This document shows, piece after piece, positions 32,053-52,972 of a DNA stretch of 64,000 bases; within the stretch, counting starts at the first letter, position 1, and each line of letters starts with the position of its first letter. The notes beneath the pieces were generated by a model. That model did no database searches and was not told the DNA's origin. It saw only the letters and a list, made by a program, of their open reading frames with translations. The stretch covers positions 11,606 through 75,605 of the forward strand of contig MGXR01000002.1 of NCBI GenBank assembly GCA_001801425.1, in the 5' to 3' direction. This DNA is from Gammaproteobacteria bacterium RIFCSPHIGHO2_02_FULL_42_43. GTDB lineage: Bacteria; Pseudomonadota; Gammaproteobacteria; Coxiellales; Coxiellaceae. The translations under genes and the position numbers were made by a program.

Positions 32053-32116
32053 TTATTTGATTTACTCACACTTTTAAGTGAAATTGATATAAAATGACCA
32101 AATGAGGTTGTGCGCG

Positions 32117-33502
32117 ATGGATGCTAGGGCATGGATTACCAGGATGGTGGCATTGATAGGTTGTTGCCTGTCGCCCATGCTTCACGCGGAAACCTTTCTC
32201 CAAGTTTATTCTCAAGCCCTTCAAAGTGACCCTGCTTTTCTCAAAGCCGAAGCCAATTGGCGCGCGCAAAAACTGAATTTACCAATCACACGCGCGGGTT
32301 ATTTGCCGCAATTAGCGGTTGCTGGAAATGCGGTACGCAGCTACACTTTTTACGCACCTGCATCGCTCAGTGAGGTATCGGATTACAACTGGAATTACGG
32401 CTACTCAATAACACTCACGCAACCCATTTTTGATTTGGCTGCATGGCATGCAATCAAAGGAGCGAGTGCGTCCGTCAAATCCGCAACAGCAACCTATCTT
32501 GCCGCGCAACAACAATTAATGCAGCGCACCGCACAAGCCTATTTTGAAGTATTAAAAGCGTATGAAACATTAATCTACACGAATGACAACAAAGAAGCGG
32601 TGTGGAAACAATATCTCACGGCAAAAAGAAAATATGAAGCGGGATTAATTGCTGTCATGGATATGTATGACGCACGTTCACGTTATGATTTTGTGATTGC
32701 ACAGGAAATTTCGGCGAAAAATACTTTGAGTGATAAATTGGAAAATTTGCACGCACTCACAGGCCACTATTACAAAACACTCAACGGATTCAGCATAAAA
32801 ATTCCACTGGTACAACCCAATCCACGCAGTGTCGATGCATGGACTAAAGCATCGGAGGCGCAAAATTACAGTATTCAAGCGCAACGCTTTAATGTCATCG
32901 CAGCGATGGACAACATCAAGCAACAAGTGGAAGCAGGTTATCCCACGCTCGATTTATCCACTGGATTTGTAGAAGCAAGGGCAGTTGATAATCAGAACGA
33001 CAGCACAAACACTGACGCTGTCAATTTAGGATTAAATTTAACATATAAACCCATTCAGGGGGGGTTAGTATATACATCGACAGAACAAGCACGTTACTAC
33101 TACGCAGCCGCTGCCGCAGAACTGGAATTAGTGCATCGGCAAGTCGTTATTCAAGCGCGCAATAGTTACGTTGGCGTGATGGCGATGATGAATCGCGTGA
33201 ACACGGATCGCGCGCGCATTGTGTCGGCCAACAAAGCACTCGTTGCAACGGAAGCAGGATTAAAAGTGGGTGCGCGAACGATGCTTGATCTTTTGAATGA
33301 TTTAACAACTTTGTATCAAGCGCAGCAACAATTGGCTGACGATCGATACACTTATCTCACCAATGTTATTAATTTAAAAGCGGCAGCGGGCACGCTCAAA
33401 ATGGCTGATATTATGCAGATAAATCATTGGTTGCAGAAAAAAATTGCGCTGCCGTCTACATCGTTTGTGGATGTAAAAGCATCGGAGAGACAAAAGCAAT
33501 AA
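32117..33502 (+). CDS. tolC: TolC-family outer membrane channel
   Basis: Signal peptide then ETFLQVYSQALQSDPAFLKAEANW...GYLPQL. Duplicated alpha/beta repeat architecture, ~460 aa. Confidence 0.8.
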   Translation: MDARAWITRMVALIGCCLSPMLHAETFLQVYSQALQSDPAFLKAEANWRAQKLNLPITRAGYLPQLAVAGNAVRSYTFYAPASLSEVSDYNWNYGYSITLTQPIFDLAAWHAIKGASASVKSATATYLAAQQQLMQRTAQAYFEVLKAYETLIYTNDNKEAVWKQYLTAKRKYEAGLIAVMDMYDARSRYDFVIAQEISAKNTLSDKLENLHALTGHYYKTLNGFSIKIPLVQPNPRSVDAWTKASEAQNYSIQAQRFNVIAAMDNIKQQVEAGYPTLDLSTGFVEARAVDNQNDSTNTDAVNLGLNLTYKPIQGGLVYTSTEQARYYYAAAAAELELVHRQVVIQARNSYVGVMAMMNRVNTDRARIVSANKALVATEAGLKVGARTMLDLLNDLTTLYQAQQQLADDRYTYLTNVINLKAAAGTLKMADIMQINHWLQKKIALPSTSFVDVKASERQKQ

Positions 33503-33539: not shown

Positions 33540-35642
33540 TTAAAAGTTGATTTTTTTTTGCGATACATCAAAATGCTTGATGTATTCTTCGACGTCGTCC
33601 ATCGGCATTGCTTTTGAGAAAAAATATCCTTGGAAAATATAGCAGCCACTTTTTAATAAAAAATCCACTTGCGATTGTGTTTCCACTCCTTCAGCAATCA
33701 ACGTGATGTTCATCGCCATCGCCAACGAAATAATACTTTTAATAATATTTTTGCAATTGGGATCGTTATCAATTTCTTGCACAAACGATTGATCTATTTT
33801 TAAAAGTTTAATCGGCAATTCTTTTAAATTAGTAAATGAAGAATAGCCTGCACCAAAATCATCTACACCGAGCGAAAATTCGGTAATAGGTGTTTTCATG
33901 AATTGTTTTTTTAATTGCGCGATATTTTGAACGACACTGGTTTCAGTAATTTCAAACATGATGCGGCGATAATCCACATCATACTCTTTTACTTTTTCCG
34001 ATAACTTTTGAATAAAATTATCTTGTAATAATTGTGTAGCCGACACATTAATACCCATGCTCACTGCATGCCGACGAAAATAAAGAGATGCTTGATCAAA
34101 TTTTTTGTACGCCGTCAGCGCCGTATCAATCACCCACGCACCCACTTCCTTCATCTGTCCACTTTCTTCAGCGATTGGCACAAAAACAGACGGCGGAATT
34201 TCACCGTATACATCTTGATTCCATCGCAACAACGCTTCAAATCCATGGATACAGCTTTTTAATAAATTAATTTGTGGTTGAAAAAACAAAGACAATTCTT
34301 TTTTTTCAATTGCGTGACGCAGCGCGTTTTCAATAAATACGGTGTGCTGAATTTCATGACTGATGTTGTCCGTATAAATTTCATAACAATTTCTACCGCG
34401 CGCTTTGGCGCGATACAATGCTTGATCCGCTTTTTGAATAATTTTTTCAGCGTTCACGCCATCGGAAGTATTGTCAACATAAGCAATACCAATGCTTAAC
34501 GTTGCCAAACATTCATTGTCTTCAACGTAAAACGGGGTGCGAAATTTTGTGAGAAAATTATCAGCGATAAATGCAAGCTCACCAATGCTATTAACGTATT
34601 TTAATACTATTAAAAATTCATCACCGCCAATACGAGCAATCATGTCATATTTTCGTGCGTTGGCTTTCAGCCGCTCTGCCACTTGTTTTAATAATTCATC
34701 ACCAATGTGGTGTCCCAATACGTCATTAATTTTTTTAAAATGATCAAGATCGATGTAAAAAACAGCGAAGGCATTTAACAAACCACGTTCACATTCATGC
34801 ACTATCTTTTGCACGAAATCCGAAAAATAGCGACGATTCGGAAGCCCCGTCAACGGATCATGCATCGATAAATTTTTCAGTTCATCTTCAGTTTTTTTCA
34901 AATGCGTGATATCTACCATAGCACCAAGATATTCCACATTATTTTTATCAAGTAATTCTGGAATAAAATTGCATTTGACACAAATTTCTTTAGAATGCTT
35001 GGTAAGCAATTTTACCTCTAATTCAAACGGTGCTTGCAAAGACAATCGTTGATGAAACGTTTTAACAAATTCGGTTTTGTTATCAATCGATAGATATTGC
35101 AACCATCCATCCCCGCTCGTTAATTCTGCTTGAGAATAACCAAGCATGTCGCACAACGGCTGATTCACAAAAAAACATCGGCCCTTATCATCCATTTTAA
35201 AAACACCAGTGCGTGTTACATTAATCACTTCATTTTCGGCGTTCGCGCGTTTCTTTTTAACCATCGTCTCTTGATATTCACTTAAAACGCGACGAATCGT
35301 AGACGGCAATACCACCAAGTTTTCTTTCAACACGTAATCTTGCGCGCCTTGCTTAATCAAACGAATCGCTGCTTCATAACCGATGGCACCAGAGATAATA
35401 ATAATCGGCACTTCAATTTTTTTTTCTTTGATGATGTGAATGGCTTCTTTAGCGCTTAAATTGGGAACATCATAATCCATCAAAACGAGATCAAATTTCT
35501 CGGTGTCAAGCCGGTGGCAAAACGTTTCTCGATCATCCACCACCACAATATCGGCAGGATCCGCGTGATCTTTCAAAGACAACGCGACAAGCTCTGCGTC
35601 TATCCCATTGTTTTCTATGTAAATAATTTTTATTTTGTCCAC
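33540..35642 (-). CDS. REC-PAS-GGDEF-EAL protein with intact catalytic and I-site motifs
   Basis: Receiver (LVLMDYDVPN), PAS region, RKYDMIARIGGDEF (RxxD I-site plus GGDEF). EAL motifs FEALLRW, INVSA, EITE, DDFGAGYSS, KIDQSF, AEGVE and QGYFF are all present. Confidence 0.85.
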   Translation of the reverse strand: MDKIKIIYIENNGIDAELVALSLKDHADPADIVVVDDRETFCHRLDTEKFDLVLMDYDVPNLSAKEAIHIIKEKKIEVPIIIISGAIGYEAAIRLIKQGAQDYVLKENLVVLPSTIRRVLSEYQETMVKKKRANAENEVINVTRTGVFKMDDKGRCFFVNQPLCDMLGYSQAELTSGDGWLQYLSIDNKTEFVKTFHQRLSLQAPFELEVKLLTKHSKEICVKCNFIPELLDKNNVEYLGAMVDITHLKKTEDELKNLSMHDPLTGLPNRRYFSDFVQKIVHECERGLLNAFAVFYIDLDHFKKINDVLGHHIGDELLKQVAERLKANARKYDMIARIGGDEFLIVLKYVNSIGELAFIADNFLTKFRTPFYVEDNECLATLSIGIAYVDNTSDGVNAEKIIQKADQALYRAKARGRNCYEIYTDNISHEIQHTVFIENALRHAIEKKELSLFFQPQINLLKSCIHGFEALLRWNQDVYGEIPPSVFVPIAEESGQMKEVGAWVIDTALTAYKKFDQASLYFRRHAVSMGINVSATQLLQDNFIQKLSEKVKEYDVDYRRIMFEITETSVVQNIAQLKKQFMKTPITEFSLGVDDFGAGYSSFTNLKELPIKLLKIDQSFVQEIDNDPNCKNIIKSIISLAMAMNITLIAEGVETQSQVDFLLKSGCYIFQGYFFSKAMPMDDVEEYIKHFDVSQKKINF

Positions 35643-35737: not shown

Positions 35738-37750
35738 ATGGGATGGATCAAGGCCAAGTTCGCGCAATACCATGCATGGATAAGCCCCGTCATTTCAGTG
35801 CTTCGTGAGCGTGTCGGCAATGCGCTCGACTTTCTTTACCACACACTGGTTGCGATTCCCGTTCGCTTCATCAAGCAACTGATTCAAAAAATATCGCAAA
35901 AAGTGCAATCATGGCTTGCGCCAATCACGCAACATTACACGACACACATTCTCCCGATTTATACGTATTACAAAAACCAATGCAAAGAAAATACCCAGGA
36001 ATATTGGAAAGCAGTGCGAGAAATTCGCATTAAAAATAAAACCGTGGGTGATGTGGTGGATGTGGGTGTTGCAAAAATCAACGAGCATCCCTGGATTCGT
36101 CAGCTACAAGATGCATCAAAACTCGACACGCGTTTTCCGACAATGATCAGCACGCTGTTTGCCAATTTGTTAGCGATTATTTTTCCACTGTCGCTCATGC
36201 AAGTCTACGATCGCATCATTCCCAATCACACCACCAACACATTATTATTTTTAACCCTCATCGTTGTCTCTGCCATTGCGCTCGAAGCTGCTCTTCGCAT
36301 CATTCGCACTTACATTAATTTATGGGCAGACACAAAATATGAATTTTATTTGGGAAAAACTGCGTTTTCTAAAATAATGAATGCACCACTACACATCGCT
36401 GAAAACACGGATGTGGGTACGCGCTTGGAACAATTTGCAATTTTGGATCAGATGAAAGGGTTTTATAATACGCAATTGCTGACGGCCATGTACGAAGTTC
36501 CCTTTTTGCTAATCTTTGTCTTCGTCATTGCTTACATTGGCGAATGGTTATTTATCATTCCACTCATCACCATTATTTTTTCAGCTTATCTCATGTGGAA
36601 ATTCGCATTACGCTGGGAATTTTTACTCAGAGAAAAATTGACGTTCGAAGCCCGCGAAAATGATTTTATTATTAATGTGCTCACCGGAATTCACACTGCC
36701 AAATCCATCGGCATGGAAGAATTATTATTACGTCGTCATGAACGTTTGCAAGAATCGGGCATGAAAATTGATTTTTTATCCAGCATACACGACGGCGATT
36801 TACTCACCATCAAATCAACGGCGAGCCAAGGCACCATCATACTCACCGCTACATTCGGTTGCATCATGGTGGTGTATGGGCATTTGGCGATTGGGGGGCT
36901 AGCCGCTTGTATTTTATTGGCAGGTCGAATCATGCGCCCATTTGATCGCATTTTAACGACATTTAATCGCTTAAACATGATCAATTTGGTGCGCGAAAAA
37001 TTAGATGTCATTTTTCAATTGCCCTCCGAGGAAAATGTCACTACGGGCGAAACCGTGATTTTAAAAGGTGAAATTAAATTGGAAAAAATTAGTTTTCATT
37101 TTGATGATTTTAAAGAATATGAAATTCTAAAAGCACTGGATCTGCGCATTCCACCGAACACATTAGTGGGTATCTGTGGTGATGATCAAACTGAAAAAAC
37201 AACCTTGTTAAATATTTTATCCACGGTCACGAAACCAACTAGCGGACAATATTTTTTGGATGATAAAGACGTGCATCAATATCAAACTTCCGCACTGCGA
37301 AAACAAATCGCCTATTTAAAACGAACCGGAAAATTATTTCGCGGCAGCATCATGGATAATTTATCTGCATTCGATGAAAAATTAATTCCAATGGCGAGAC
37401 GCTTAGTCGATCGCCTGGGGTTAAACACGATCTTATCAAAACTGCCAAGCGGATATGACACTTTTGTCGGTGAAAAAGCAGTTGAAGCTTTGCCTGGTGG
37501 TGTCGTCAATTTGATTTTAATTATTCGAGCGCTGGTTCGAAAACCGAAAATTGTATTGTTTGATGAAACCAATATTAATCTGGATACACAGTCCAAACAA
37601 AAAATGTTGGAGTTACTACCCTATCTCAAAGAATTTTCAACCATTGTGGTATTAGTGATGCAAGAATCTACCATGAAAATTATGGATGTGATTTACCGAT
37701 TTGAAGAAGGAAAATTAGTGCGGGTAGAAAATTTCCGTCCTGAAAATTGA
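35738..37750 (+). CDS. HlyB-family T1SS ABC protein with degenerate nucleotide-binding motifs (ABC1)
   Basis: TMD begins LFANLLAIIFPLSLMQVYDRIIP. NBD: Walker A GICGDDQTEKTT (no GxGK), Q-loop Gln>Arg (YLKRTGKLF), signature LPGGV, Walker B IVLFDE, H-loop His lost (VLVMQEST). The last 5 codons lie in MITE copy C. Confidence 0.8.
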   Translation: MGWIKAKFAQYHAWISPVISVLRERVGNALDFLYHTLVAIPVRFIKQLIQKISQKVQSWLAPITQHYTTHILPIYTYYKNQCKENTQEYWKAVREIRIKNKTVGDVVDVGVAKINEHPWIRQLQDASKLDTRFPTMISTLFANLLAIIFPLSLMQVYDRIIPNHTTNTLLFLTLIVVSAIALEAALRIIRTYINLWADTKYEFYLGKTAFSKIMNAPLHIAENTDVGTRLEQFAILDQMKGFYNTQLLTAMYEVPFLLIFVFVIAYIGEWLFIIPLITIIFSAYLMWKFALRWEFLLREKLTFEARENDFIINVLTGIHTAKSIGMEELLLRRHERLQESGMKIDFLSSIHDGDLLTIKSTASQGTIILTATFGCIMVVYGHLAIGGLAACILLAGRIMRPFDRILTTFNRLNMINLVREKLDVIFQLPSEENVTTGETVILKGEIKLEKISFHFDDFKEYEILKALDLRIPPNTLVGICGDDQTEKTTLLNILSTVTKPTSGQYFLDDKDVHQYQTSALRKQIAYLKRTGKLFRGSIMDNLSAFDEKLIPMARRLVDRLGLNTILSKLPSGYDTFVGEKAVEALPGGVVNLILIIRALVRKPKIVLFDETNINLDTQSKQKMLELLPYLKEFSTIVVLVMQESTMKIMDVIYRFEEGKLVRVENFRPEN

Positions 37751-37894
37751 TTAACTTAAATTTTCAGATTTGAGGTGAGGTTGAATGATAATTTATCGAG
37801 AAAAGCGGAGTTGACACGTTAGTCAATGAGCATTTTCGAGGAAAATTATCATTCAAGATCACCCAAAGATGAAAATTTTTTTGAAAATAGGGGT
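37733..37894 (+). mobile_element. ~162-bp palindromic MITE-like element, copy C
   Basis: Same family as copies A and B. It sits between the two ABC genes. Confidence 0.75.
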
Positions 37895-37898
37895 AGGC

Positions 37899-39980
37899 AT
37901 GCGAGTTAAAACGCCATTTGAATATTGCTTGCAACCATTGCTCAAAGCGCTCAATTGGCAAGGCAATGATCGCATGTTATTCGAAAGCTTGCCGCATTTA
38001 TCCTCCATCGAATCGCTCGATAAATTTCAATGGGTGATGCAAAATCTCAATTTCGACAGTCAATCCATTGCATTGAATATCAAACGCGTTGACGAACGTT
38101 TGTTTCCTTGTTTATTTATTCCAGAAAAAAGTCATTTCCCTATTGTGCTCATTCAAAAGAATCTGGATGGCATATTGATCTATGACAGTGAAACACATGA
38201 AACTAAAACGTTGCCCGCCCTAGATAAACAGGGAACACTCATTTCATTTAAGGCAAGAATAGGGGGTGTTTCAAAAGTCAACGAACAGCATTGGTTTCGC
38301 ACTATTTTATTGAAAGAAAAAAAATTATTTTCATTTATTATTTTTTTAACATTGTTACAAACGATTTTTTTACTGGGTCCGCCAGTGTATATCATCAGCC
38401 TTTACGATAAAGTCATTGTGGCAGATTCTGGCAGCATGTTGTTTGCTTTTTTTATTGGTATTACGATTGCGGTGATTGCACTCAGCGTCACAATGAAAGC
38501 GCGAACACGATTTTTGGGATACGTGGGCACGCACATACAAAAACACGTGGGCAACGCGATCTTTAAACAATTATTGCGATTACCGCCATCCTATACTGAA
38601 AACGCCTCTGTCCCCATGCAAATTGTGCGCCTTAATGATTTTAATGTGGTGCGCACTTTCTTCAGCAGCTCTTTGTTTACAACATTGTTAGAATTTCCGT
38701 TTTTATTAATTTATTTGTTTGTAGTATGGTTGGTGGGTGGTGTGTTGGTGGTCATTCCGTTCATTGCAATTCTCATTTCATTTGTGATTTCTCTTTTTAC
38801 TTGGCGTTTTTTGCAAAAAAATATTCGCGAAAGCAGCATGAGTAAAGCAGAATACAAAGATTTTCTATTGGAATCTTTTTGGGGCATGCGATCACTGCAA
38901 TATGCCGGATTACAAGAAAAATGGATATCACGTTTTCGCGACATTAGCGCCAAATCCAGTTACTACGGAAAAAATTTACTGTTTGAAAGCCAAGTCAATG
39001 ATGTGGTATTTGATTCCATCATTATGTTATCGGGACTCGCAACATTGATTGTCGGCGCTGTGATGGTTATCAACAATCAATTGCAAGTAGGTGCGTTGGT
39101 TGGCGCGATGTTTATCATTTGGCGTGTGCTGACACCCATTCGCTCCATCAATACCATGCTTCCCAAGTTAATGCAGCTGAGATTAAGTTCGAAACAAATT
39201 AATGAACTCATGAAATTACCATCAGAATTACCAACGGAGCGGCAATGGAAAAACACGCCGCAATATATTGTGGGTGCCATTGGATTTTCACAAGTCACTT
39301 TTCGATATCCCAGCGCTGATTCACCCGCACTGAAAAATATTAATTTTGATTTGAAAGCGGGACAATGTTTGTGTGTGATAGGCCCAAGTTCTTCGGGTAA
39401 AAGTACCATGGCCAATTTGATTTTGGCTATCTATTCTCCGCAAGCGGGACAAATTTACATTGATAATCGCAACATCAAACAATATGACGTTAACGTGTTG
39501 CGAAAAAGTATTTCTTACGTGCCACAAAAAACAGAATTGTTTTATGGCACCATTGCGCAAAATATTGCGTTGTCGCAGCCACTCGCATCGCACGAGCAAA
39601 TTGTTGAAGCAGTAAAAGCAGCGGGTTTACTCAAAGAAGTGGAAGCGTTACCAGAAGGATTGAAAACACGCATTCGGTTTTACAGCGATGAAAAATTAGG
39701 GCCTGCATTTTGCCAAAAAATTAATTTAGCGCGCGCCTATTTGCGTGACGCCCCAATTTTAATTTTAGATGAGCCGACAGGCACATTAGATGACGATGGT
39801 ATTCAAGCTTTCGAAACGTTTTTAACACATTTAAAAGGTAAAAAAACGATTGTATTGTTTGGACATAATACGCGTTTTCTACCATTGGCTGATTTTGGCT
39901 TGATCCTGTACGATGGATATATTGTGACAAGTGGTGATCCCAAAACGATTATGGAAAATCTGCCGCAGGGAATTGTATGA
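37899..39980 (+). CDS. HlyB-family T1SS ABC transporter with C39-like N-terminal domain (ABC2)
   Basis: Start MRVKTPFEY (the track start at 37869 is inside the MITE). Walker A GPSSSGKST, Q-loop YVPQ, Walker B ILILDEPT, H-loop FGHNT. The signature is degenerate (LGPAF instead of LSGGQ). Confidence 0.85.
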   Translation: MRVKTPFEYCLQPLLKALNWQGNDRMLFESLPHLSSIESLDKFQWVMQNLNFDSQSIALNIKRVDERLFPCLFIPEKSHFPIVLIQKNLDGILIYDSETHETKTLPALDKQGTLISFKARIGGVSKVNEQHWFRTILLKEKKLFSFIIFLTLLQTIFLLGPPVYIISLYDKVIVADSGSMLFAFFIGITIAVIALSVTMKARTRFLGYVGTHIQKHVGNAIFKQLLRLPPSYTENASVPMQIVRLNDFNVVRTFFSSSLFTTLLEFPFLLIYLFVVWLVGGVLVVIPFIAILISFVISLFTWRFLQKNIRESSMSKAEYKDFLLESFWGMRSLQYAGLQEKWISRFRDISAKSSYYGKNLLFESQVNDVVFDSIIMLSGLATLIVGAVMVINNQLQVGALVGAMFIIWRVLTPIRSINTMLPKLMQLRLSSKQINELMKLPSELPTERQWKNTPQYIVGAIGFSQVTFRYPSADSPALKNINFDLKAGQCLCVIGPSSSGKSTMANLILAIYSPQAGQIYIDNRNIKQYDVNVLRKSISYVPQKTELFYGTIAQNIALSQPLASHEQIVEAVKAAGLLKEVEALPEGLKTRIRFYSDEKLGPAFCQKINLARAYLRDAPILILDEPTGTLDDDGIQAFETFLTHLKGKKTIVLFGHNTRFLPLADFGLILYDGYIVTSGDPKTIMENLPQGIV

Positions 39981-41353
39981 CGACAGAAGAAGAACACCAG
40001 CAATCTAATCGTGAGCAGTTAAAGCAAATTTCCCTAGCTTCGCTGCTTGAAGAGGGTGGTTACGCACGTTTGTTTAAACGCAGTTTGTATTTTATTGCTG
40101 CCATTTTATTTGCCTTATTGCTTTGGGCATCGCTCACTAAAGTCGATGAAGTAGCCATCAGCTACGGCGACATACAACCCGTGCGCGAAGTGCAACCCAT
40201 TCAACATTTGGAAGGCGGAATTATCTCAGCCGTGTATGTAAAAAATGGGGACGAAGTGCGTGCGGGCGATAAGCTTGTGAAATTTGATCCTGAGCAAGTG
40301 AATGCGGAATTACAAAAAGCACAAGGTCGCGAAATCACACTTATTTTAGATATCACGAGGCTCAATGCATTTATCAGTGAAACACCACTACACAGTGTGA
40401 GCTGGCGTGACGCTGTTGCGAAAGCGACATTTAATACACCAGAACATCACGACAAAACAGAACAGCTGCTGCGCGAAAGTTTGAATTTATTAATCAAACA
40501 AAATCAAGATCGTGACAATGAGCGCGCCATTTACGTTGAAAAAATTCGCCAAAAATCAGCGCAATTGCAACAATTTTCAGACAGCGCAAAAGAATTGGAA
40601 AAGAAATTGGCGCTGGATAAACAAGAAGAATCGATGTATGGCTCGCTGGTGGAAGAAGGTTACGTGTCTCGCAAAGAATATTTGGGGGCACAGCGCAACA
40701 CCATCGAAGCTATTGCCATCATCAAACAAACTGATGCCAAAGTAAAAGAAGCGGCCAGCGAATTGCAAGAATCTCAAACAGAATTAGAAAAATTAAACAC
40801 GGGTTTAAATAAAGAAGCGCTGAAAGAATTAAATCAACTCAACGGTCAGTTATTGGAAGTGCATTACAGCATCAAACGTTTATCCGCGTTGAGTAAACGA
40901 TTGGTAGTCACCGCCCCAGAATCAGGCATTGTGAAAGGATTAACGATCACACCCGGCGGCGTCATCGCCCCCGGTGATTCCATACTGGAAATTGTACCAA
41001 CACAAGGCGAAATGTTGGTGCAAAGTAAAATTAGCACACACGACATTGGACACATTCGCGTAGGCGATCACGCCAAAATTAAAGTGATGGCGTATGAATT
41101 CACGCGATACGGTACCGTAAATGGAAAGGTAACGGAAATTTCGGCGTCAACATTTTTCAGCAAAGATGAATTACCGTATTACAAAGCAAAAATCTCCATT
41201 GAAAAAAATTATGTGGGTGAAAATCCCAATCACAATCAATTAAAACCGGGAATGACGGTGGAAGTAGATATTATCACCGGTAAAAAAACAATTATTTCTT
41301 ACTTGCTAACGCCAATCACGCGCGGATTGAAGGATGCGTTTAGGGAAAGATGA
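39977..41353 (+). CDS. HlyD-family type I secretion membrane fusion protein
   Basis: N-terminal TM, long coiled-coil, lipoyl/beta-barrel segments, C-terminal ISYLLTPITRGLKDAFRER. ATGA overlap with ABC2. Confidence 0.85.
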   Translation: MTTEEEHQQSNREQLKQISLASLLEEGGYARLFKRSLYFIAAILFALLLWASLTKVDEVAISYGDIQPVREVQPIQHLEGGIISAVYVKNGDEVRAGDKLVKFDPEQVNAELQKAQGREITLILDITRLNAFISETPLHSVSWRDAVAKATFNTPEHHDKTEQLLRESLNLLIKQNQDRDNERAIYVEKIRQKSAQLQQFSDSAKELEKKLALDKQEESMYGSLVEEGYVSRKEYLGAQRNTIEAIAIIKQTDAKVKEAASELQESQTELEKLNTGLNKEALKELNQLNGQLLEVHYSIKRLSALSKRLVVTAPESGIVKGLTITPGGVIAPGDSILEIVPTQGEMLVQSKISTHDIGHIRVGDHAKIKVMAYEFTRYGTVNGKVTEISASTFFSKDELPYYKAKISIEKNYVGENPNHNQLKPGMTVEVDIITGKKTIISYLLTPITRGLKDAFRER

Positions 41354-41403: not shown

Positions 41404-44400
41404 TTAACTAAAATCTATATAATCGACTTCTTGGAAAGTAATCGTTGTACCATCATCAATGGTGAGTGTACCGCTCGCATCAGCAGAGTTGAATGTCAAG
41501 CGCGTAATGCCACCACCTGGACTTGAACTCGTAGTACCAGTCCCACTGCTCAACGACCAAGTACCACCTTGCGCACCAACACCTTTCATATAAATACCAT
41601 CATTACCCGAACCACCAGCGCCTGTGCCACCATAGAAAGTAGTATCATTATTGTCGCCGTAAACAAAATGAAACACATCAGCACCTGCATCACCATACAC
41701 CGTATCTGTGCCACCACTCGTGGTTGAACGAAATACATCGTTACCACCATTACCGTGTATTGTGTCATCACCCGTGCCACCTAAGATAAAATCTCCATTT
41801 GCACCACCGTTCAATGTGTCATTGCCACCAAGGCCATCAATAATATTCACTTTCGTGCTATCACCATCAATCGTGTTAGCGCCCGATGTGCCTGTGCTTG
41901 TCACACTACTCGTACTGCCCAACACAAAATCACCGGCATTTAAATTTTGTGCGGTGAACCCCGTTAATTTAATCGAGAAATCGGCGGTGTTATCACCATT
42001 CGTATCTAAAGACACGATGGTGTCGTTAGTACTTTGTGCCCACCATATTTGATTGACAACACTATTAGCGCCACCTAATCCCAAAATACTAAACGGTGTG
42101 CTGATGTAAGTGCTCAAATCAATCTTATCACCTTCGGAAACACTGAAACTTCCGCTGCCACTATTAAAATCTGCAATTGAGTCGCGCGCAGATGAATCGC
42201 CGGATGAATAAGATCCATTGGCCCACGTAAAAGTATCGGCACCCGTTCCACCGGTTAACGTATCCGCACCTAATGCTATACCCGAATAAGAAAAACCGTA
42301 TTTATTCGCTATATACTGGTTAACGATATCTAAATTGCTCGCACTCAGCACAGAATCAAACAACATGATTTCATAAATATTTCCGTTGAAATAGTCGCTG
42401 GTAACGGCACCTGAATCATATTCTTGACCAATGGAAAACTTTGTAGCGCTAGTTGTTAATCCATCTGAAAAACTATTTTTCGCTGTACCATTGACATAAC
42501 CAGCAGCAGTTGTACCGTCCGCAGTAGCAATAAAACCAAACACGCCCGCATTTAAATAGTTCACATCCGATGCCACAACTGAGGTATCACCATCCTTATG
42601 AGTGATTTGGCCACTGGCATCAACAAGCCATTCTTCAGAGTTGGCGTAACTGTCGTTATTCCATGCCAACATCGTAGTTTCATCTCCACCGGGGTCTAAT
42701 GTCGGATCACCCACAAAAACAACGGTGTGTGCTGAGCGAGCAAACGTACCCAGCGCATCAGCTATCAAAAACTGTGCGTTATCACTGTTGAATGCGATAG
42801 CGGCACGCCCTATTGAACCATAAGCGAAAGTGGGTTTATTATCCGCGGTCGCTTGTGTTGCATTATTGCCTTGATCAGACAAGTCGGTCCATGTACCAAC
42901 AGCGGCACCACTCGCAACCGATGTATTATCTCCATTGACATTGCCGGCGTCTAACCACAATTTCATTCCGGAAACTGTGGAATTCGTGAACGCAATTCCA
43001 TCGGCATAAATCACGTCATTACCCGCGCCAGCAGAAATCGTATCACCACCGTATGCACCTTTTAATGTGTCCGCACCGGAGTTACCCGTTAACGTATCTG
43101 CACCCGAACTACCATTCATCGTGGTATTCACGCCCGCTACGGCAGATACTTTTCCGGCCGCACTCAATGTCACGGCACCTGTGCCGCCAATCGTTACCGT
43201 TCTTGCCGCATTAAGCGCGCTCGAATCTAAGCTGACAGTGTAAGTACTGTTATTGATACGAACGCTGTCGCTGTCCGATGTATCCACAAATGCATCTGAT
43301 AATGTGATGGTGCTGTTGCCGCCCAATTGCATAACGTCTATACCAGTTTTATCCGCCAATTCTGCAGAAGTGATGGTGGCCGCGTTGGTGAAAATCAATG
43401 TATCTGATCCAAGTCCTGCACTGAGAGTATCAGCTGCTGCAAAATTCGCATCAGATGTTGTGAAAGTATCTGCACCACCGGTGCCGGTAAATGTGTCAGT
43501 GCCACTCGTTAAAGTTAATGCAACGGGCACTGCAAAATCACCCGACACTAAATTTGTTGCAGTGAAATTTTGCAATGTAATCGCAAATTCAGCGGAAAGA
43601 TTACCATCTAAATCTACTTGAACTAATGTGTCAGCACCGCTTTGTGCCCAAATAATCGAATTCAACGTGCCATCGAAACTCGCGCCATTCCCCAAAATCG
43701 TATAAGCAGCACCTGCGCTTACATTCGTAATATCTAATTTATCGCCTTCACTTGAGTTGTAACTACCCGATCCCGTTTTAAAATCAGTGATAATATCCGT
43801 AGCGGAGCTGCCGCCTGATGTGGTTGAAGTCCACGTGAAAACATCCGCACCCGTGCCGCCCGTTACTGTATCGGCACTCGCATAAGAACCTGAAACATTA
43901 TCCGCATAAATTGTATCGGCACCTGCGCCAGCAGAAATCGTATCACCACCGGCACCACCGGTTAATATATCTACGCCAGTGCCACCCGTAATTGTATCGG
44001 CACCACTGCTGCCAGTAATTGTCGTGTTAACACCATCAACAGAAATCACTTTGCCTGCAGCACTTAATGTCACAGCACCTGTGCCACCAATCGTTGCAGT
44101 TCTTGCCACATTTAAATCACTGGTATCTAAACTTAATGTGTAAGTACCGTTATTAATTCTGACCGTATTGCTATCGGATGCATCGACAAATGCATCGCTT
44201 AATGCAATTGTGCTATTGCCACTTAATTCAATAACGTCAATACCGGTTTTATTCGCAAATTGTGCAGCGGTAACGGTTGCGGCATTGGTGAAAATTAATG
44301 TATCCGATCCTGCGCCAGCAGTAATCGTATCTGCTGCTGCAAAATTAGCGCTGGTGGTTTTAATTGTGTCTGCAGCAGAGCCCATGACAACCGCATCTGT

Positions 44401-47400
44401 GCCGCTTGTTAATTGCGTGAAACTATTTGATGACAAAACAAAGTCGCCATAATTTAAATTGCTTGCGGTGAAATTAGATAATTTAATTGACCAATCTGCT
44501 GTGTTATCACCACCAAAGTCCATGCTGACAATGACATCAGCACCGCTTGTCGCCCAAATCACTTGATTCGCAAACCCTGAAAATGAAGCTGCTCCCAACA
44601 TCACGGTTGGTCCAGAAACCAATGTGCTGATATCAATTTTATCGCCTTCATTTGCATCGTAACTACCAGAACTAGTATTAAAATCAGTAATAACACTACG
44701 CGCTGAAGTATCACCGGATGAGTAAGACATGTTACTGAAAACAAAAGTATCTGCACCTGTGCCACCCGTTAATGTATCTGCTGCAAATGTTGTGCCAGAT
44801 AAAGCAATACCATATTTGTAGGACAAATATTGATTCGCGATCGCCATTTCTGATGCGCTAAGATAATGATCAAAGACTAAGACTTCTGCAATACTACCTG
44901 TATATCTATATTCACCATTATAATCCTCACCCAGATAAAGTGGTGTGCTGTCCATAAGAGTTGCATTACGTACGACGCTTCCAACTGGACTTGTTCCGCC
45001 GTCATGAAAAATTGTGTAAGTTGAGCCGGTGCGACCACCACTTAAAATAGCTGCAGTTCCATCGGTAAATAAACTAGAGCTGTTTCCATCATAACTTCCC
45101 GAGCCATCCAAATAAAAGCTATTTGCACTGGAGGCGCTACGCGTTATAGCCCACCCAGAGTTATAGTTTTTATCCATTATATTTTCCCAATCATTGACAT
45201 TCGAATCTTTGAAAACTGTTAGTACAAACATATTGCCGTAATTGGCGGTAAGTCCTGTGACAATACCACTACTACCATTAAAACTAACGGATGCTCGTCC
45301 ATTGATGCCGCTGCTTGAATAGGTAGGGGTGCCGGCACTGATCGTACCATCATTAGCGCCAGTTACAGATAGATCATTCCAAGCGGTAATGCTTGAACCA
45401 TTAGCAGCAGCTGTACCATTAGCAAGAAGATTGCTAGCATCCAACCACAAATCATTTCCTGAAATTGAGGCATTCGTAAATGCAATGCCACCCGCGTAAA
45501 TCGTATCGTTTCCCGCACCACCTGAAATCGTATCACCACCGTATCCACCGATTAATGTGTCGTTACCTGTACCACCGGTTAATGTATCCGCACCTGTGCT
45601 ACCAGTGATATTAGTATTAACACCAGCTGCTGAAGTAACTTTACCTGCAGCACTTAAAGTGACAGCACCTGTGCCGCCAATCGTTACCGTTCTTGCCGCA
45701 TTAAGCGCGCTCGAATCTAAGCTGACAGTGTAAGTGCTGTTATCGATGCGAACGCTGTCGCTGTCCGATGCATCCACAAATGCATCTGATAATGTGATGG
45801 TGCTGTTGCCGCCTAATTGTATAACATCAACACCTGTTTTATTCGCCAATTCTGCAGAAGTGATGGTGGCTGCGTTGGTGAAAATCAATGTATCTAATCC
45901 AAGTCCTGCGCTGAGAGTATCAGCTGCTGCAAAATTCGCATCAGATGTTGTGAAAGTATCGCCATCAGCTTCAGTTCCTGTCAAAGTATCTGTGCCACTG
46001 GTAAAAGTGAGTGATACAGGCACTGCAAAATGCGATGCTTGTAAATTAGTTGCGGTGAAGCCAGACAACAGAATTTCAAATTCAGCAGAACTATTACCAT
46101 CAATATCCACTTGAACTAAAGTATCAGCACCACTTTGCGACCAAATCACAGCACTCGCAGTACCATCAAAACTTGCGCCATTACCTAAGAAAGTATAAGC
46201 CGCATTGCTATTCAATGCGGAAATATCAATACGATCTATTTCACTAGAATCATAACTACCTGAGCTCATTTTGAAATCAGCAATCACATCACGTGCGACG
46301 CTACCACCGGAAGACAATGCAGTCCAAATAAATGCATCCGCGCCCGTGCCGCCCGTTACTGTATCGGCACTCGCATAAGAACCTGAAACATTATCCGCAT
46401 AAATTGTATCGGCACCTGCGCCACCTGAAATCGTATCGCCACCGGCACCACCGGTTAATGTGTCAGCGCCAGTGCCACCCGTCATTGTATCGGCACCACT
46501 GCTGCCAGTAATTGTCGTGTTAACGCCATCAACAGAAATCACTTTGCCTGCAGCACTTAATGTCACCGCACCTGTGCCACCAATCGTTGCAGTTCTTGCC
46601 ACATTTAAATCACTGGTATCTAAACTTAATGTGTAAGTACCATTATTAATTCTGACCGTATTGCTATCCGATGCATCCACAAATGCATCGCTTAATGCAA
46701 TGGTGCTGTTGCCACTTAATTGAATAACATCGATACCGGTTTTATTCGCAAATTGAGCAGCGGTAACCGTTGCGGCATTCGTAAAGAGTAATGTGTCAGA
46801 TCCTGCGCCAGCAGTAATCGTATCTGCTGCTGCAAAATTAGCGCTGGTGGTTTTAATTGTGTCTGCTCCCGAACCAGCAGTAATAGTATCCGTACCGCTT
46901 GTCAGTACCACATAACTACCTGATGCCAAAACAAAGTCGCTATAATTTAAATTGCTTGCGGTGAAATTAGATAATTTAATTGACCAATCGGCAGTATTAT
47001 CACCACCATAATCTAAGCTAATAATCGTGTCTGATCCGCTTTGTGCCCAATACAATTGATTGACTGTGCTGGATGTGCCACCGATGCCATTGACGACATA
47101 AGGTATGCTGATGAGCGTGCTGATATCAATTTTATCGCCTTCGCTTGAATTGTAACTACCCGATGATGTATTAAAATCAGTGATTACATCACGCGCAGAT
47201 GAATCACCAGAGGAATAAGATGCGTTAGACCACGTGAATGTGTCAGCACCCGTGCCGCCGGTTAATGTATCTACACCCAATGCAGCGCCTGCATCGGTTA
47301 CACCATATTTCAAAGCAATATATTGGTTTACAGCCGCCAATTCAGCAACACTCAACACCTTAGAAAAGACCATTACTTCATACATGTTAGCATTCAGAAA

Positions 47401-49542
47401 CTCAGCTGGAGCACCAGCATCATATGCTGTACCAATCGTAAACGTTGCAGCACTGCTGCTCAGGCCATCACCAAAGGCGGTTCTAACATAACCGAAAGTA
47501 TAAGGTGTTATATTCACACCGTCGGCTACGGAGATAGCCGTTACAATACCGGCACCCGCAACATAATTTTGATCAGTTGCAAAATTCGCATTATTACCAT
47601 CCCAGTGATATATACCCCCGGTTAAATCGTTATTATAATATTCTTCTTTGATCGATATACGAGCACTATCAGCCCACGACACAATTGCAGCGTTGCCATA
47701 CTCATCAAAATCACCTACGAATACAAGGGTGTGCGCAGCAGCCCCAACTGTACCAATACCATCGGCATTGAAAAATTGCGAGTTAGGAGCGTTGAAATCA
47801 ATAGCTGCATTTCCAGCAGCATCATATGTAAAAGTAGGGCGATTGCCGGCTGTCGCTTGTGTTGCATTGTTAGCATTACCGGATAAATCTGCCCAGGTCG
47901 CAATCGCAGCACCACTCGCCACTGCAGTGCCATCACCATTTACATTCCTTGCGTCTACCCAAAAACTTAGGTTGGAAATTGTTGAACTTGTAAACGCTTG
48001 TCGATCAGCATAAATCACATCATTACCCGCACCACCCGTAATTGTATCGCCACCATATCCACCAGTCAGTGTATCTGCACCCGTGCCACCCGTTAATGTA
48101 TCTGCACCCGTACTACCGATGATATTGGTATTCACACCAGCCGCTGAAGTTACTTTTCCGGCAGCGCTTAAAGTGACAGCACCTGTTCCACCAATTACTG
48201 CAGTTCTTGCATCATTCAAAGCACTAGTATCTAAGCTTACTGTGTAAGTGCTGTTATCGATGCGAACGCTGTTGCTGTCCGATGCATCCACAAATGCATC
48301 GCTGAGCGCAACAGTGCTGTTGCCACCCAACTGAATGACATCGATTCCCGTTTTGTTCGCTAATTCAGCAATCGCAATATTTGCACCACCAGTAAATACA
48401 AGTGTGTCTGTTCCCGTGCCTGCGGCAATCGTGAGGTTCGATGTGAAAGAAGCGTCCGTGACATTAAAAGTATTCGCGCCAGAATAGTCAGCAGATTCTG
48501 TTGCTTGCGCAACAGGTTGCTGCGGTGTGGGTGTTGAAAAAGATAAAATTTCGCGAACAATCACAATGGGTGATGCTGATATCGTGACAGAAGATGTCAC
48601 TCCAATCACTGACGTTACTGATATCACACTTGATATTGCCGTAGTGGATGAAAAAAACGAGAAATTTCCGACTGATTGCGACACGTTAGTGGATGATGAA
48701 TTAAAGTAATTGATGGTTTCAACATGAGGAACATTAGCAACAGAATTAAATGCGTTCGCAACAGAATTAAATGCATTTGAAATACTGCTCGCATTTGAAA
48801 TACTGCTCGCATTAAAAATGCCGCTTGCGACTGCCGTGGAAATTAAACCGGAAGAAAAGCCAAACCCCGTATTCACTCCTGAAAAACTTCCAGACAGATT
48901 GGCTAACATCGCAGAATACGACGATATCGTCATTGGTTTTTCAGCATAAGACATCGTCATTGGTTTTTCAGCGTAGAATTGCGTTCTTTCTTGGACAAAA
49001 CGAGCAGCCACACTAGCACTCATCGTTTCGCGAACATGAGACGCGTCAAGACTTGCCAGCATAACAGGTGTTGCATTCACAAAGCGGCTTGCTTCTGACG
49101 GATGAAACGCTGCCATCTTTTCGCCGCTCAATAATCGTGTACCCGTATCTTCAACAGCACCTTCTCTTACTGACTTCGTTAACTCAATCGGTTCAATTTT
49201 TTTATCTTTGTCAAAAGTATCTTCATCATTTTCTTTGGGTTTTTCTTCGTGTGTTTCACGTTCTTCAAAAGCGATGGAAGATTCGGAGTGATGGGATTCT
49301 TTGGTGGATAATTCACTGTGGCTTTCAACTTGTTCGCCTTTGTTGATGACAGCTCTGGCATTGTGATCAACATCCACGCGTGGATCAGGCAACACTCCGC
49401 TGTGCTCCTTCACTTGACTGACCACCTTGGTAGCGGAGCCTTGAGATTGCGACCCTTCGGTTTCAGTTAAATTTTCGCTGAAATCGACGGGCAATGTATG
49501 ACTTGGAGAATAATCTTTACCCACAACCCACCTATATATCAA
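41404..49542 (-). CDS. giant (2712 aa) RTX-type repeat adhesin / T1SS substrate with three LamG-like domains
   Basis: C-terminal nonapeptide RTX repeats (GGNDTLNGGANGDFILGGTGDDTIHGNGGNDV) and an acidic extreme C-terminus. Three ~830-aa super-repeats. TTG start just after an in-frame TGA, so the exact start is uncertain. Confidence 0.85.
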   Translation of the reverse strand: MIYRWVVGKDYSPSHTLPVDFSENLTETEGSQSQGSATKVVSQVKEHSGVLPDPRVDVDHNARAVINKGEQVESHSELSTKESHHSESSIAFEERETHEEKPKENDEDTFDKDKKIEPIELTKSVREGAVEDTGTRLLSGEKMAAFHPSEASRFVNATPVMLASLDASHVRETMSASVAARFVQERTQFYAEKPMTMSYAEKPMTISSYSAMLANLSGSFSGVNTGFGFSSGLISTAVASGIFNASSISNASSISNAFNSVANAFNSVANVPHVETINYFNSSSTNVSQSVGNFSFFSSTTAISSVISVTSVIGVTSSVTISASPIVIVREILSFSTPTPQQPVAQATESADYSGANTFNVTDASFTSNLTIAAGTGTDTLVFTGGANIAIAELANKTGIDVIQLGGNSTVALSDAFVDASDSNSVRIDNSTYTVSLDTSALNDARTAVIGGTGAVTLSAAGKVTSAAGVNTNIIGSTGADTLTGGTGADTLTGGYGGDTITGGAGNDVIYADRQAFTSSTISNLSFWVDARNVNGDGTAVASGAAIATWADLSGNANNATQATAGNRPTFTYDAAGNAAIDFNAPNSQFFNADGIGTVGAAAHTLVFVGDFDEYGNAAIVSWADSARISIKEEYYNNDLTGGIYHWDGNNANFATDQNYVAGAGIVTAISVADGVNITPYTFGYVRTAFGDGLSSSAATFTIGTAYDAGAPAEFLNANMYEVMVFSKVLSVAELAAVNQYIALKYGVTDAGAALGVDTLTGGTGADTFTWSNASYSSGDSSARDVITDFNTSSGSYNSSEGDKIDISTLISIPYVVNGIGGTSSTVNQLYWAQSGSDTIISLDYGGDNTADWSIKLSNFTASNLNYSDFVLASGSYVVLTSGTDTITAGSGADTIKTTSANFAAADTITAGAGSDTLLFTNAATVTAAQFANKTGIDVIQLSGNSTIALSDAFVDASDSNTVRINNGTYTLSLDTSDLNVARTATIGGTGAVTLSAAGKVISVDGVNTTITGSSGADTMTGGTGADTLTGGAGGDTISGGAGADTIYADNVSGSYASADTVTGGTGADAFIWTALSSGGSVARDVIADFKMSSGSYDSSEIDRIDISALNSNAAYTFLGNGASFDGTASAVIWSQSGADTLVQVDIDGNSSAEFEILLSGFTATNLQASHFAVPVSLTFTSGTDTLTGTEADGDTFTTSDANFAAADTLSAGLGLDTLIFTNAATITSAELANKTGVDVIQLGGNSTITLSDAFVDASDSDSVRIDNSTYTVSLDSSALNAARTVTIGGTGAVTLSAAGKVTSAAGVNTNITGSTGADTLTGGTGNDTLIGGYGGDTISGGAGNDTIYAGGIAFTNASISGNDLWLDASNLLANGTAAANGSSITAWNDLSVTGANDGTISAGTPTYSSSGINGRASVSFNGSSGIVTGLTANYGNMFVLTVFKDSNVNDWENIMDKNYNSGWAITRSASSANSFYLDGSGSYDGNSSSLFTDGTAAILSGGRTGSTYTIFHDGGTSPVGSVVRNATLMDSTPLYLGEDYNGEYRYTGSIAEVLVFDHYLSASEMAIANQYLSYKYGIALSGTTFAADTLTGGTGADTFVFSNMSYSSGDTSARSVITDFNTSSGSYDANEGDKIDISTLVSGPTVMLGAASFSGFANQVIWATSGADVIVSMDFGGDNTADWSIKLSNFTASNLNYGDFVLSSNSFTQLTSGTDAVVMGSAADTIKTTSANFAAADTITAGAGSDTLIFTNAATVTAAQFANKTGIDVIELSGNSTIALSDAFVDASDSNTVRINNGTYTLSLDTSDLNVARTATIGGTGAVTLSAAGKVISVDGVNTTITGSSGADTITGGTGVDILTGGAGGDTISAGAGADTIYADNVSGSYASADTVTGGTGADVFTWTSTTSGGSSATDIITDFKTGSGSYNSSEGDKLDITNVSAGAAYTILGNGASFDGTLNSIIWAQSGADTLVQVDLDGNLSAEFAITLQNFTATNLVSGDFAVPVALTLTSGTDTFTGTGGADTFTTSDANFAAADTLSAGLGSDTLIFTNAATITSAELADKTGIDVMQLGGNSTITLSDAFVDTSDSDSVRINNSTYTVSLDSSALNAARTVTIGGTGAVTLSAAGKVSAVAGVNTTMNGSSGADTLTGNSGADTLKGAYGGDTISAGAGNDVIYADGIAFTNSTVSGMKLWLDAGNVNGDNTSVASGAAVGTWTDLSDQGNNATQATADNKPTFAYGSIGRAAIAFNSDNAQFLIADALGTFARSAHTVVFVGDPTLDPGGDETTMLAWNNDSYANSEEWLVDASGQITHKDGDTSVVASDVNYLNAGVFGFIATADGTTAAGYVNGTAKNSFSDGLTTSATKFSIGQEYDSGAVTSDYFNGNIYEIMLFDSVLSASNLDIVNQYIANKYGFSYSGIALGADTLTGGTGADTFTWANGSYSSGDSSARDSIADFNSGSGSFSVSEGDKIDLSTYISTPFSILGLGGANSVVNQIWWAQSTNDTIVSLDTNGDNTADFSIKLTGFTAQNLNAGDFVLGSTSSVTSTGTSGANTIDGDSTKVNIIDGLGGNDTLNGGANGDFILGGTGDDTIHGNGGNDVFRSTTSGGTDTVYGDAGADVFHFVYGDNNDTTFYGGTGAGGSGNDGIYMKGVGAQGGTWSLSSGTGTTSSSPGGGITRLTFNSADASGTLTIDDGTTITFQEVDYIDFS
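41900..48480. repeat. ~2.5-kb super-repeats inside the adhesin gene (three units, the two C-proximal ones partly near-identical)
   Basis: For example, 43176-43245 equals 45666-45735 (offset 2490), and 44041 onward matches 46534 onward. Unit boundaries recur near 42250, 44760 and 47255. Confidence 0.8.
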
Positions 49543-52491: not shown

Positions 52492-52494
52492 GCG

Positions 52495-52884: not shown

Positions 52885-52907
52885 ATCAACTCCTTCATAT
52901 TTATATT

Positions 52908-52970
52908 CACTCGCTACCGCTCGTGTCTATGTGCGATATAGTCGGACACAGACGCGACCGGTAGGGAGCG
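52908..52970. repeat. REP-like family 1, inverted pair (hairpin)
   Basis: CACTCGCTACCGCTCGTGTCTATGTGCG-ATATAGTC-GGACACAGACGCGACCGGTAGGGAGCG lies between gcvT and gcvH. Confidence 0.8.
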
Positions 52971-52972
52971 AT

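Follow-up and report, generated by a model that had tools for sequence, protein, structure and literature searches.

HlyB of E. coli, the ATP-binding cassette (ABC) exporter of a classical type I secretion system (T1SS), is a homodimer with two consensus ATP sites, each of which, as in other ABC proteins, is built from the Walker A and B motifs, Q-loop and H-loop of one nucleotide-binding domain (NBD) and the signature motif of the other. The C39-like domain (CLD) of HlyB serves RTX substrates, and the coupling of ATP use and of this domain to the threading of long unfolded T1SS substrates is still debated. To our knowledge, work on T1SS ABC proteins has so far been done entirely on symmetric homodimers such as HlyB. 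Walker-box mutants of the MARTX proteins RtxB and RtxE were reportedly described by Boardman and Satchell in 2004, in a study cited for a MARTX heterodimer. The MARTX T1SS (RtxB, RtxD, RtxE and TolC) requires two different ABC proteins, for which a heterodimer has been suggested (PMC3034196; PMC4316617). Here we analyze a stretch of 64,000 nucleotides from Gammaproteobacteria bacterium RIFCSPHIGHO2_02_FULL_42_43 (contig MGXR01000002.1, positions 11,606 to 75,605; hereafter the window), in which two adjacent HlyB-type genes, ABC1 and ABC2, quite probably encode the halves of an asymmetric heterodimer that would serve, together with HlyD and TolC proteins, as the inner-membrane engine of a T1SS, its likely cargo being a neighbouring RTX protein of 2712 amino acids (aa).

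The locus resembles both of these described systems in part. ABC2 has the same architecture as HlyB (CLD, transmembrane domain (TMD), NBD), a HlyD partner and a presumed RTX substrate; it differs in being ~23% identical to HlyB, in its LGPAF signature and in the company of a second subunit that lacks a CLD. With MARTX, the window has in common a T1SS with two ABC proteins and a giant RTX-type protein as the presumed substrate, whereas the gene order is different (rtxB, rtxD, rtxE, with the adaptor between, vs. ABC1, ABC2, adaptor). A preliminary description of this DNA had invoked MARTX as a precedent for a two-ABC T1SS, which is correct as far as the number of ABC proteins is concerned, but the split into a good and a degenerate site is not seen in the one RtxB/RtxE pair used for comparison (V. 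harveyi plasmid): Walker A, Q-loop, LSGGQ, Walker B and H-loop are all consensus in both proteins, and neither site is degenerate. RtxB (701 aa) and RtxE (722 aa) are 23–25% identical to ABC1/ABC2, no nearer than any other T1SS ABC protein, and align to ABC2 from residues ~40–70. A complete rtxB-hlyD-rtxE cassette is found on the conjugative V. harveyi plasmid NZ_CP018682.2 (L081; 93744-99378 and 102394-107334), beside a C80 cysteine peptidase gene (MARTX-like) and flanked by IS630 and IS110 transposases.

By curated protein families, the best NCBIfam matches of ABC1 and ABC2 are the T1SS models for LssB, HlyB and PrtD, all far under their cutoffs. The LssB subfamily (TIGR03375) scores best for both proteins (303.6 bits for ABC1 and 425.4 for ABC2, the latter aligned over the full model; cutoff of 693.1 unmet), with 215 and 304.2 bits, respectively, for HlyB (TIGR01846; cutoff of 725.55 unmet). 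The NHLP/NHLM bacteriocin cassette (TIGR03796, TIGR03797 and a HlyD-like protein) is similar, by its model descriptions, in having adjacent ABC halves, an adaptor and one peptidase(-like) domain, and it differs in its active C39 peptidase and small leader-peptide substrates; the scores of ABC2 and ABC1 are 218.6 and 140.6 bits for TIGR03796 (cutoff 853.3) and 200.1 and 164.9 bits for TIGR03797 (cutoff 709.4). All components of a T1SS, i.e., ABC exporter halves, a HlyD adaptor and a TolC-family protein, are found at the locus.

Motif asymmetry between the two nucleotide-binding domains

The tandem arrangement of two HlyB-type genes upstream of the HlyD gene, as given in the preliminary description, was confirmed: both open reading frames (ORFs) are intact in the window (Table 1), and their products are diverged paralogues with 26% identity. 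The motif register was set by gap-free phmmer alignments to ABCB1/ABCB4. In this register, the Walker A motif of ABC1, previously described as broken, has Gln in place of Gly4 and Glu in place of Gly6, with Gly1, Lys and Thr in register and retained; hence, of the lysine and glycines whose conservation was in question, the Lys is present and Gly4 and Gly6 are not. The replacement of the Q-loop Gln by Arg and the loss of the H-loop His were both borne out by the same alignments, as was the near-consensus character of the ABC1 signature, in which Pro stands for Ser and Val for Gln. For ABC2, the earlier assignment of consensus motifs holds for the Q-loop, Walker B and H-loop, Walker A being near-consensus (Ser at Gly4), and its signature is indeed destroyed, with LGPAF aligned to LSGGQ.

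In the arrangement that we propose, ABC1 and ABC2 would be unlike halves of a single heterodimeric ABC exporter with two unequal ATP sites. The competent site would combine the P-loop, Q-loop, Walker B Glu and H-loop His of ABC2 with the LPGGV of ABC1, which is predicted to complete an active site with the ABC2 P-loop. The other, non-catalytic, site would consist of the ABC1 P-loop minus two glycines, Arg in the Q-loop and Met in the H-loop, faced by the LGPAF of ABC2. Thus, the split between one consensus and one fully degenerate site proposed from the first inspection is supported, but less clean on both sides: the good site is near-consensus, and ABC1 keeps its Walker A Lys and Walker B Glu.

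With two unlike half-transporters encoded by adjacent genes, and with one predicted site close to consensus and the other degenerate, the window pair would follow the degenerate-site heterodimers among ABC exporters (TM287/288, TmrAB, BmrCD, TAP1/TAP2, ABCG5/G8). Human degenerate sites all include a mutated partner signature, such sites often have Walker B Glu-to-Asp and H-loop changes (ABCG5/G8 alters Walker A instead), and ATP stays bound in the degenerate sites described (PMC7756269); Walker B Glu-to-Asp is their commonest hallmark (PMC7756269, PMC7544095). The ABC2 signature agrees with the first of these features, and ABC1 agrees with the deviations in H-loop and Walker A (His to Met, Gly4 to Gln, Gly6 to Glu), with a Q-loop Gln-to-Arg change as well; as in ABCG5/G8, Walker A is among the altered motifs. 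The losses in ABC1 (two P-loop glycines, Q-loop Gln and H-loop His) are harsher on nucleotide binding than those of the described degenerate sites. The loss of two P-loop glycines argues for poor nucleotide binding rather than for a stable ATP "hinge" and, with Glu at the position of Gly6, we lean slightly toward a degenerate site that would bind ATP weakly or not at all. A further difference is that the TM287/288-type exporters are stand-alone transporters of small molecules or peptides, whereas the window pair is accompanied by an adaptor and a TolC-family protein and has a CLD.

Conservation, pairing and fusions across the family

The family survey comprised 80 loci fetched and verified from a scan of species-representative genomes. 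These were drawn from 558 tblastn-confirmed stretches, a number that is not the size of the family; other T1SS ABC proteins may have been caught by the search pattern, LQVYDRIIP. Motif counts are given for 81 ABC1 and 74 ABC2 proteins, and synteny counts for the 75 loci in which the sequence continues downstream of ABC1 for 2.3 kb or more. The hosts include Rhodospirillales, Thalassospira, Magnetospirillum, Magnetococcales, Piscirickettsia salmonis, Legionellales and Rifle gammaproteobacteria, and the genes are currently named "hypothetical" or "ATP-binding cassette domain-containing protein". ABC1 itself is 100% identical to A3I77_02550 (P0001) of RIFCSPLOWO2_02_FULL_42_14, for which the NCBI name is "hypothetical protein". 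The close orthologues of ABC1 (P0002-P0015, 50-65% identity) and of ABC2 (P0122-P0139, 45-70%), often located on shared contigs, all display the motif pattern of the window. The expectation that orthologous pairs keep the complementary degeneracy was thus upheld for all close orthologues, and the asymmetry extends across ~80 loci.

The catalytic side of ABC2 is strictly maintained in this family: the H-loop His, Q-loop Gln, Walker B Asp-Glu and Walker A Gly6 are each retained in 74/74 proteins and the full Walker A in 63, and the sole lapse is a Lys-to-Arg change in Walker A (2/74, leaving the Lys in 72). In ABC1, the H-loop His is retained in 42/81 proteins (P, Y, Q, S, M, A or R in the others) and the full Walker A in 43, with higher values for the Walker A Lys (79/81), Q-loop Gln (77/81) and Walker B Glu (77/81). 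The signature has the opposite distribution, its second Gly being present in 81/81 ABC1 vs. 13/74 ABC2 proteins; the first Gly is found in 10/81 and 1/74, respectively, the Ser is changed to Pro in 75 of the 81 ABC1 proteins, and the Gln is present in none of the 74 ABC2 proteins. Fisher tests of ABC1 vs. ABC2 (kinship ignored) gave p = 5e-14 for the H-loop and p = 1e-30 for the second signature Gly. Judged by these counts, the putative composite site made of the ABC2 catalytic side and the ABC1 signature is under strict constraint, and the other site is relaxed. No simple link between the second signature Gly of ABC2 and retention of the His in ABC1 was apparent from the family counts, as compared by eye.

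The decay of the ABC1 catalytic side followed several independent routes in separate clades, the window clade among them. One clade has a Walker B Glu-to-Asp change (FDD, FDDADR; L067, L069, P0048-P0050, P0054, P0074), the Walker A Lys is missing from a Desulfovibrio-like clade (P0098, P0104, P0107, P0114), and in a Legionellales lineage (L016) Walker A reads GDSKKDVST; the ABC2 partner is catalytically complete in L016, L067 and L069. In the neighbour-joining tree, the window clade is monophyletic, with Walker A of the form GxxQxxK[TA][TA], and its sisters (P0016/17, L002/L003) have the Gly4-to-Gln change alone, the Q-loop Gln and the His being still there. The ABC2 signature is degenerate even beside a fully consensus ABC1, and therefore signature loss would have come first and Walker decay later. 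This suggests that the family inherited a degenerate ABC2 signature from its common ancestor and that the catalytic motifs of ABC1 were then relaxed repeatedly in different lineages, furthest in the window clade. By this comparison, the asymmetry is family-wide and reaches its extreme in the window clade, rather than being a peculiarity of one locus. A single contig, MGXU01000010.1, carries two paralogous ABC1-ABC2-HlyD cassettes of one genome (L001 and L002), one of them fully degenerate (GRNQTEKTA, no Gln, no His) and the other intermediate (GHGQSGKTT, with Gln and His).

The two genes are tightly associated. ABC1 is present in all 81 loci, ABC2 lies directly downstream of it or is fused to it in 75/75, and a HlyD gene is located downstream in 73/75. 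Natural ABC1-ABC2 fusions occur in two lineages. Two alphaproteobacterial species have in-frame ABC1-linker-CLD-ABC2 fusions of 1299 and 1305 aa (L047, 3042-6941, and L058, 3099-7016), which are 82.6% identical to one another, and Azospirillum lipoferum 4B (L082, 7021-11157, plasmid NC_016623.1) has a 1378-aa fusion, annotated as RefSeq coding sequence WP_244442643.1, with two ABC_membrane and two ABC_tran stretches, which displays the same motif asymmetry and adjoins HlyD and a giant cadherin/Ig protein. The fused transporters are laid out as TMD-NBD-linker-CLD-TMD-NBD, and their degenerate site is nucleotide-binding site 1 (NBS1), as it is in human full-length transporters. Since such fusions represent Rosetta-stone evidence, they point to both halves working in one transporter.

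The proposed heterodimer, its alternatives and its significance

Considered together, the strict pairing, the fusions and the complementary conservation argue for an asymmetric, obligate ABC1/ABC2 heterodimer, in line with the preliminary description, and this reading is further favoured because both sites would lack Gln and His in an ABC1 homodimer and a signature in an ABC2 homodimer. The genes present, their motif states and synteny, the fusions and the pattern of conservation can be read directly from the sequences; heterodimerisation, one-site hydrolysis and the identity of the substrate are what we infer from them. In full, the exporter would pair with the adjacent HlyD and TolC proteins, have a single substrate-docking domain per dimer, the CLD being on ABC2 alone, and carry most likely the neighbouring RTX protein as its cargo. 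Several observations weigh against this interpretation. The competent site is itself non-canonical (Pro for Ser and Val for Gln in the ABC1 signature, Ser at Gly4 of the ABC2 Walker A), and we assume from conservation that it is active. ABC1 retains the Walker A Lys and the Walker B Glu, so the usual Glu-to-Asp hallmark is absent, and in the wider family ABC1 is often catalytically complete, where the second site may keep some activity. Assemblies of mixed homodimers are conceivable, as the HlyB/D machine holds three ABC dimers, according to the titles of the PDB entries 7SGR and 8DCK. Finally, the substrate was assigned by adjacency, and a GGxGxD-rich neighbour is found in only 11/81 loci, other loci adjoining cadherin/Ig giants or no obvious substrate; the substrate class is thus variable across the family.

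It is quite improbable that ABC1 and ABC2 form separate homodimers, i.e., two engines that are either mixed in one multi-dimer T1SS or devoted to different substrates. The ABC proteins of classical T1SS are homodimers, the HlyB/D structures allow for more than one dimer in a machine, and MARTX RtxB and RtxE, each with fully consensus motifs, could each homodimerise in principle; nevertheless, each window homodimer would hold two crippled sites, the two halves are joined in one polypeptide in two lineages, co-occurrence is strict, and an invariant signature Gly in ABC1 together with an invariant His in ABC2 would be sensible only across one interface. Even less credible, in our view to the point of being hardly tenable, is that ABC1 is a functionless duplicate in decay and ABC2 runs the system on its own. 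The loss of three catalytic features, the lower conservation of its NBD compared with that of ABC2 (68% vs. 80% identity to the closest orthologous locus, L001) and the noncommittal database name of ABC1 would agree with decay, but the window gene and no fewer than 15 diverged close orthologues (50-65% identity) have an unbroken ORF, the gene and its signature Gly are universal in the family, the TMD is 72% identical to that of L001, the fold is confidently predicted, and the clade has in turn conserved the residues that replace the consensus (GxxQxxK, LPGGV, FDExNINLD); an ABC2 homodimer would, in addition, be left without a usable signature at both sites. By these measures ABC1 appears to be under constraint and is no pseudogene, and the possibility raised earlier of a pseudogene absent from relatives was not upheld.

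Less remote, though still unlikely, is a heterodimeric exporter with some other cargo (another protein or a non-protein compound), the RTX gene being a chance neighbour. The rarity of GGxGxD-rich neighbours and the variety of genes in their place speak for it, and an RTX neighbour was rejected as a family trait on that count. Against it, the RTX protein is kept in position, with 55% identity, at L001, its repeats run to the C-terminus as in T1SS substrates, ABC2 has a HlyB-type CLD fold, and HlyD and TolC are both T1SS-type proteins. The RTX protein is therefore presumed to be the substrate of the ABC1/ABC2 heterodimer.

An asymmetric heterodimer with a degenerate site is new for T1SS and well known in other ABC exporters; a literature search covering few subscription papers found no description of a degenerate, heterodimeric or asymmetric T1SS ABC protein, which is a weak negative. 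Sequence comparison places the window pair at the far end of a sizeable family of putative heterodimeric single-CLD T1SS engines that is as yet unannotated, its pairing being missed by genome annotation under the present gene names. A bolder proposal, which we offer tentatively and consider rather less probable than its converse, is that this family represents an unrecognised fourth class of T1SS ABC engine, namely, an obligate, sometimes fused heterodimer that has a single CLD and a single catalytic ATP site per transporter and is distributed among alphaproteobacteria, Legionellales and Piscirickettsia-type gammaproteobacteria. In the window clade, the second site may even be nucleotide-free, because Gln and Glu stand in place of its P-loop glycines. 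If this were true, one ATP site per transporter would power the export of a protein of 2712 aa.

The value of the system lies in the distribution of its two halves over separate genes, which makes it a natural asymmetric mutant: one half carries both the sole CLD and the sole catalytic P-loop, and the other supplies the signature alone. It would allow one to ask whether secretion can do with a single ATP site and a single CLD in each dimer, as well as which TMD half touches the adaptor and which the substrate, and it carries the "degenerate site" principle of ABC exporters over to secretion machines. The family spans a graded series in evolution that begins with a defect in the signature only and ends with full decay, and it has cultured hosts (Thalassospira, Azospirillum, Magnetospirillum, Piscirickettsia salmonis).

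N-terminal domains and neighbouring genes

The coordinates of the two transporter genes, their motifs and the surrounding features are collected in Table 1.

Table 1. Features of the ABC1-ABC2 locus, in positions of the window
Feature	Position	Strand	State or basis
TolC-family outer-membrane channel	32102..33502	+	PF02321, E 1e-45; TIGR01844, 284.6 bits vs. cutoff 225.15
REC-PAS-GGDEF-EAL cyclic di-GMP (c-di-GMP) protein	33540..35642	-	Pfam EAL, GGDEF, Response_reg, PAS
ABC1 half-transporter (TMD + NBD), 670 aa	35738..37750	+	PF00664 + PF00005
ABC1 N-terminal extension, ~130 aa	35738..36127	+	clade-specific; one long predicted helix, no recognised domain
ABC1 Walker A, GDDQTEKTT	37178..37204	+	aligned with ABCB1 GNSGGGKST
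ABC1 Q-loop region, YLKRTGKL	37313..37336	+	Arg for Gln by alignment; Arg or Lys in close orthologues
ABC1 signature, LPGGV	37490..37504	+	vs. LSGGQ; Pro for Ser, Val for Gln
ABC1 Walker B, IVLFDE, and D-loop, NINLD	37550..37585	+	Asp and catalytic Glu610 retained
ABC1 H-loop region, VLVMQE	37649..37666	+	Met for His
ABC2 HlyB-like half-transporter (C39-like domain, TMD, NBD), 703 aa	37869..39980	+	PF00664 + PF00005
ABC2 C39-like (CLD-type) domain, residues ~16-129	37914..38255	+	mainly predicted fold
ABC2 Walker A, GPSSSGKST	39381..39407	+	aligned with GSSGCGKST; Gly4 to Ser, rest consensus
ABC2 Q-loop, YVPQKTEL	39516..39539	+	Gln retained
ABC2 signature, LGPAF	39696..39710	+	degenerate vs. 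LSGGQ; would face the ABC1 P-loop
ABC2 Walker B, ILILDE, and D-loop, GTLD	39756..39791	+	
ABC2 H-loop, LFGHNT	39855..39872	+	His retained
HlyD-family type I secretion adaptor	39977..41353	+	TIGR01843, 350.8 bits vs. cutoff 208.65
RTX-repeat protein, 2712 aa, convergent with the operon	41404..49542	-	PF00353, E 1e-52

A C39-like domain on ABC2 only had been proposed before, and the predicted folds agree. In the AlphaFold2 (AF2) model of ABC2 (mean pLDDT, the predicted local distance difference test score, of 83), residues 16-129 form three helices and six strands (pLDDT 73-88), and the best PDB match of the model is the CLD-bearing HlyB structure 8DCK_A, with TM-scores of 0.81/0.83 over 689 columns that include the CLD; PCAT1 and PrtD are matched as well. 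The sequence support is weak, so that the assignment rests mainly on the predicted fold: PF03412 reaches 15.5 bits on ABC2 (E 0.015, under the gathering score of 22 bits) and matches 5/25 family members (best E 2.7e-4), and a family profile of the N-terminal domain finds the HlyB CLD (3ZUA) among PDB sequences at E 0.13, a weak but collinear match; one better-scoring PDB match of this profile was taken as spurious. The column of the catalytic Cys in true C39 ABC proteins (CGAACL) is variable in the family and holds Pro16 in ABC2. The Tyr that was said to occupy this position, as in HlyB, is thus not there; Tyr19 is Arg, His, Asp or Asn in orthologues and is not conserved even in the nearest one. 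Lacking a Cys in the catalytic column, the domain would therefore be of the CLD type rather than an active peptidase, and a non-proteolytic C39-like domain is supported by the model.

Across 25 diverse family members (alignment A2), the C39-like domain of ABC2 (residues 1-150, 37869-38318) is unusually strongly conserved, with L24, L25, G32, E39, P42, H43, L60, D75, P80 and W142 invariant and C20, W30, R77, C81, L82 and G122 nearly invariant; the ALPH motif and two cysteines lie off the canonical C39 catalytic positions. Some Rhodospirillales have long ABC2 ORFs of 937-1099 aa, for which a cyclic nucleotide-binding domain was considered and rejected, no Pfam domain being found in the extra N-terminal part; these may be over-extended ORFs in GC-rich DNA. 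The start of ABC2 is ambiguous, as the longest ORF begins at 37869 and the database protein (P0121) at Met11 (37899), which makes the gap between ABC1 and ABC2 118 or 148 bp; residues 1-11 have pLDDT < 50 in the AF2 model. The start of the HlyD gene overlaps the ABC2 stop (ATGA).

ABC1 has no C39-like domain. Its N-terminal extension was correctly described at the outset and proved to be clade-specific: residues 2-94 are a single long helix in the AF2 model, the first ~80 aa are poorly conserved, and residues 85-130 are conserved within the clade only. The first hydrophobic segment of ABC1 is at residue ~142, and proteins of the wider family begin ~25-45 aa before the first transmembrane segment, without the extension. 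The fold of the ABC1 NBD is confidently predicted (pLDDT 75-91).

The presumed cargo has 18 GGxGxD nonapeptides in recurring blocks that extend to the C-terminus. The preliminary description had called it an adhesin; PF00353 makes it an RTX protein, and the adhesin label is unproven. No C80/MARTX domain was found in this protein. Its nonapeptide blocks recur every ~270 aa (485, 762, 1022, 1323, 1593, 1853, etc.), which suggests a large internal repeat unit, and its content of Ser, Thr, Ala and Gly is very high (~12% each).

On the other side of the transporter genes, the TolC-family protein is the presumed outer-membrane part of the secretion system, and a TolC gene adjoins the cassette in L001 too. 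The c-di-GMP protein gene is divergent from ABC1, 95 bp apart, and a 66%-identical REC-PAS-GGDEF-EAL homologue occupies the same position in L001 (5569-7650). This hints at control of the secretion system by c-di-GMP, with the protein as a possible regulator and putative member of the system. Further GGDEF-EAL homologues are encoded beside ABC1-ABC2-HlyD cassettes in Piscirickettsia salmonis and in two Rhodospirillales loci (L012, 13064-15211; L006, 2293-6045; L017, 3313-6069).

Beyond the RTX gene, the glycine-cleavage genes gcvP (49648-52491) and gcvT (52973-54043) follow on the minus strand (within 49648-54043), and the GC content of the region is ~39-46% throughout. With gcv neighbours that look housekeeping, the T1SS cluster seems to be seated in the core genome rather than in an obvious island.

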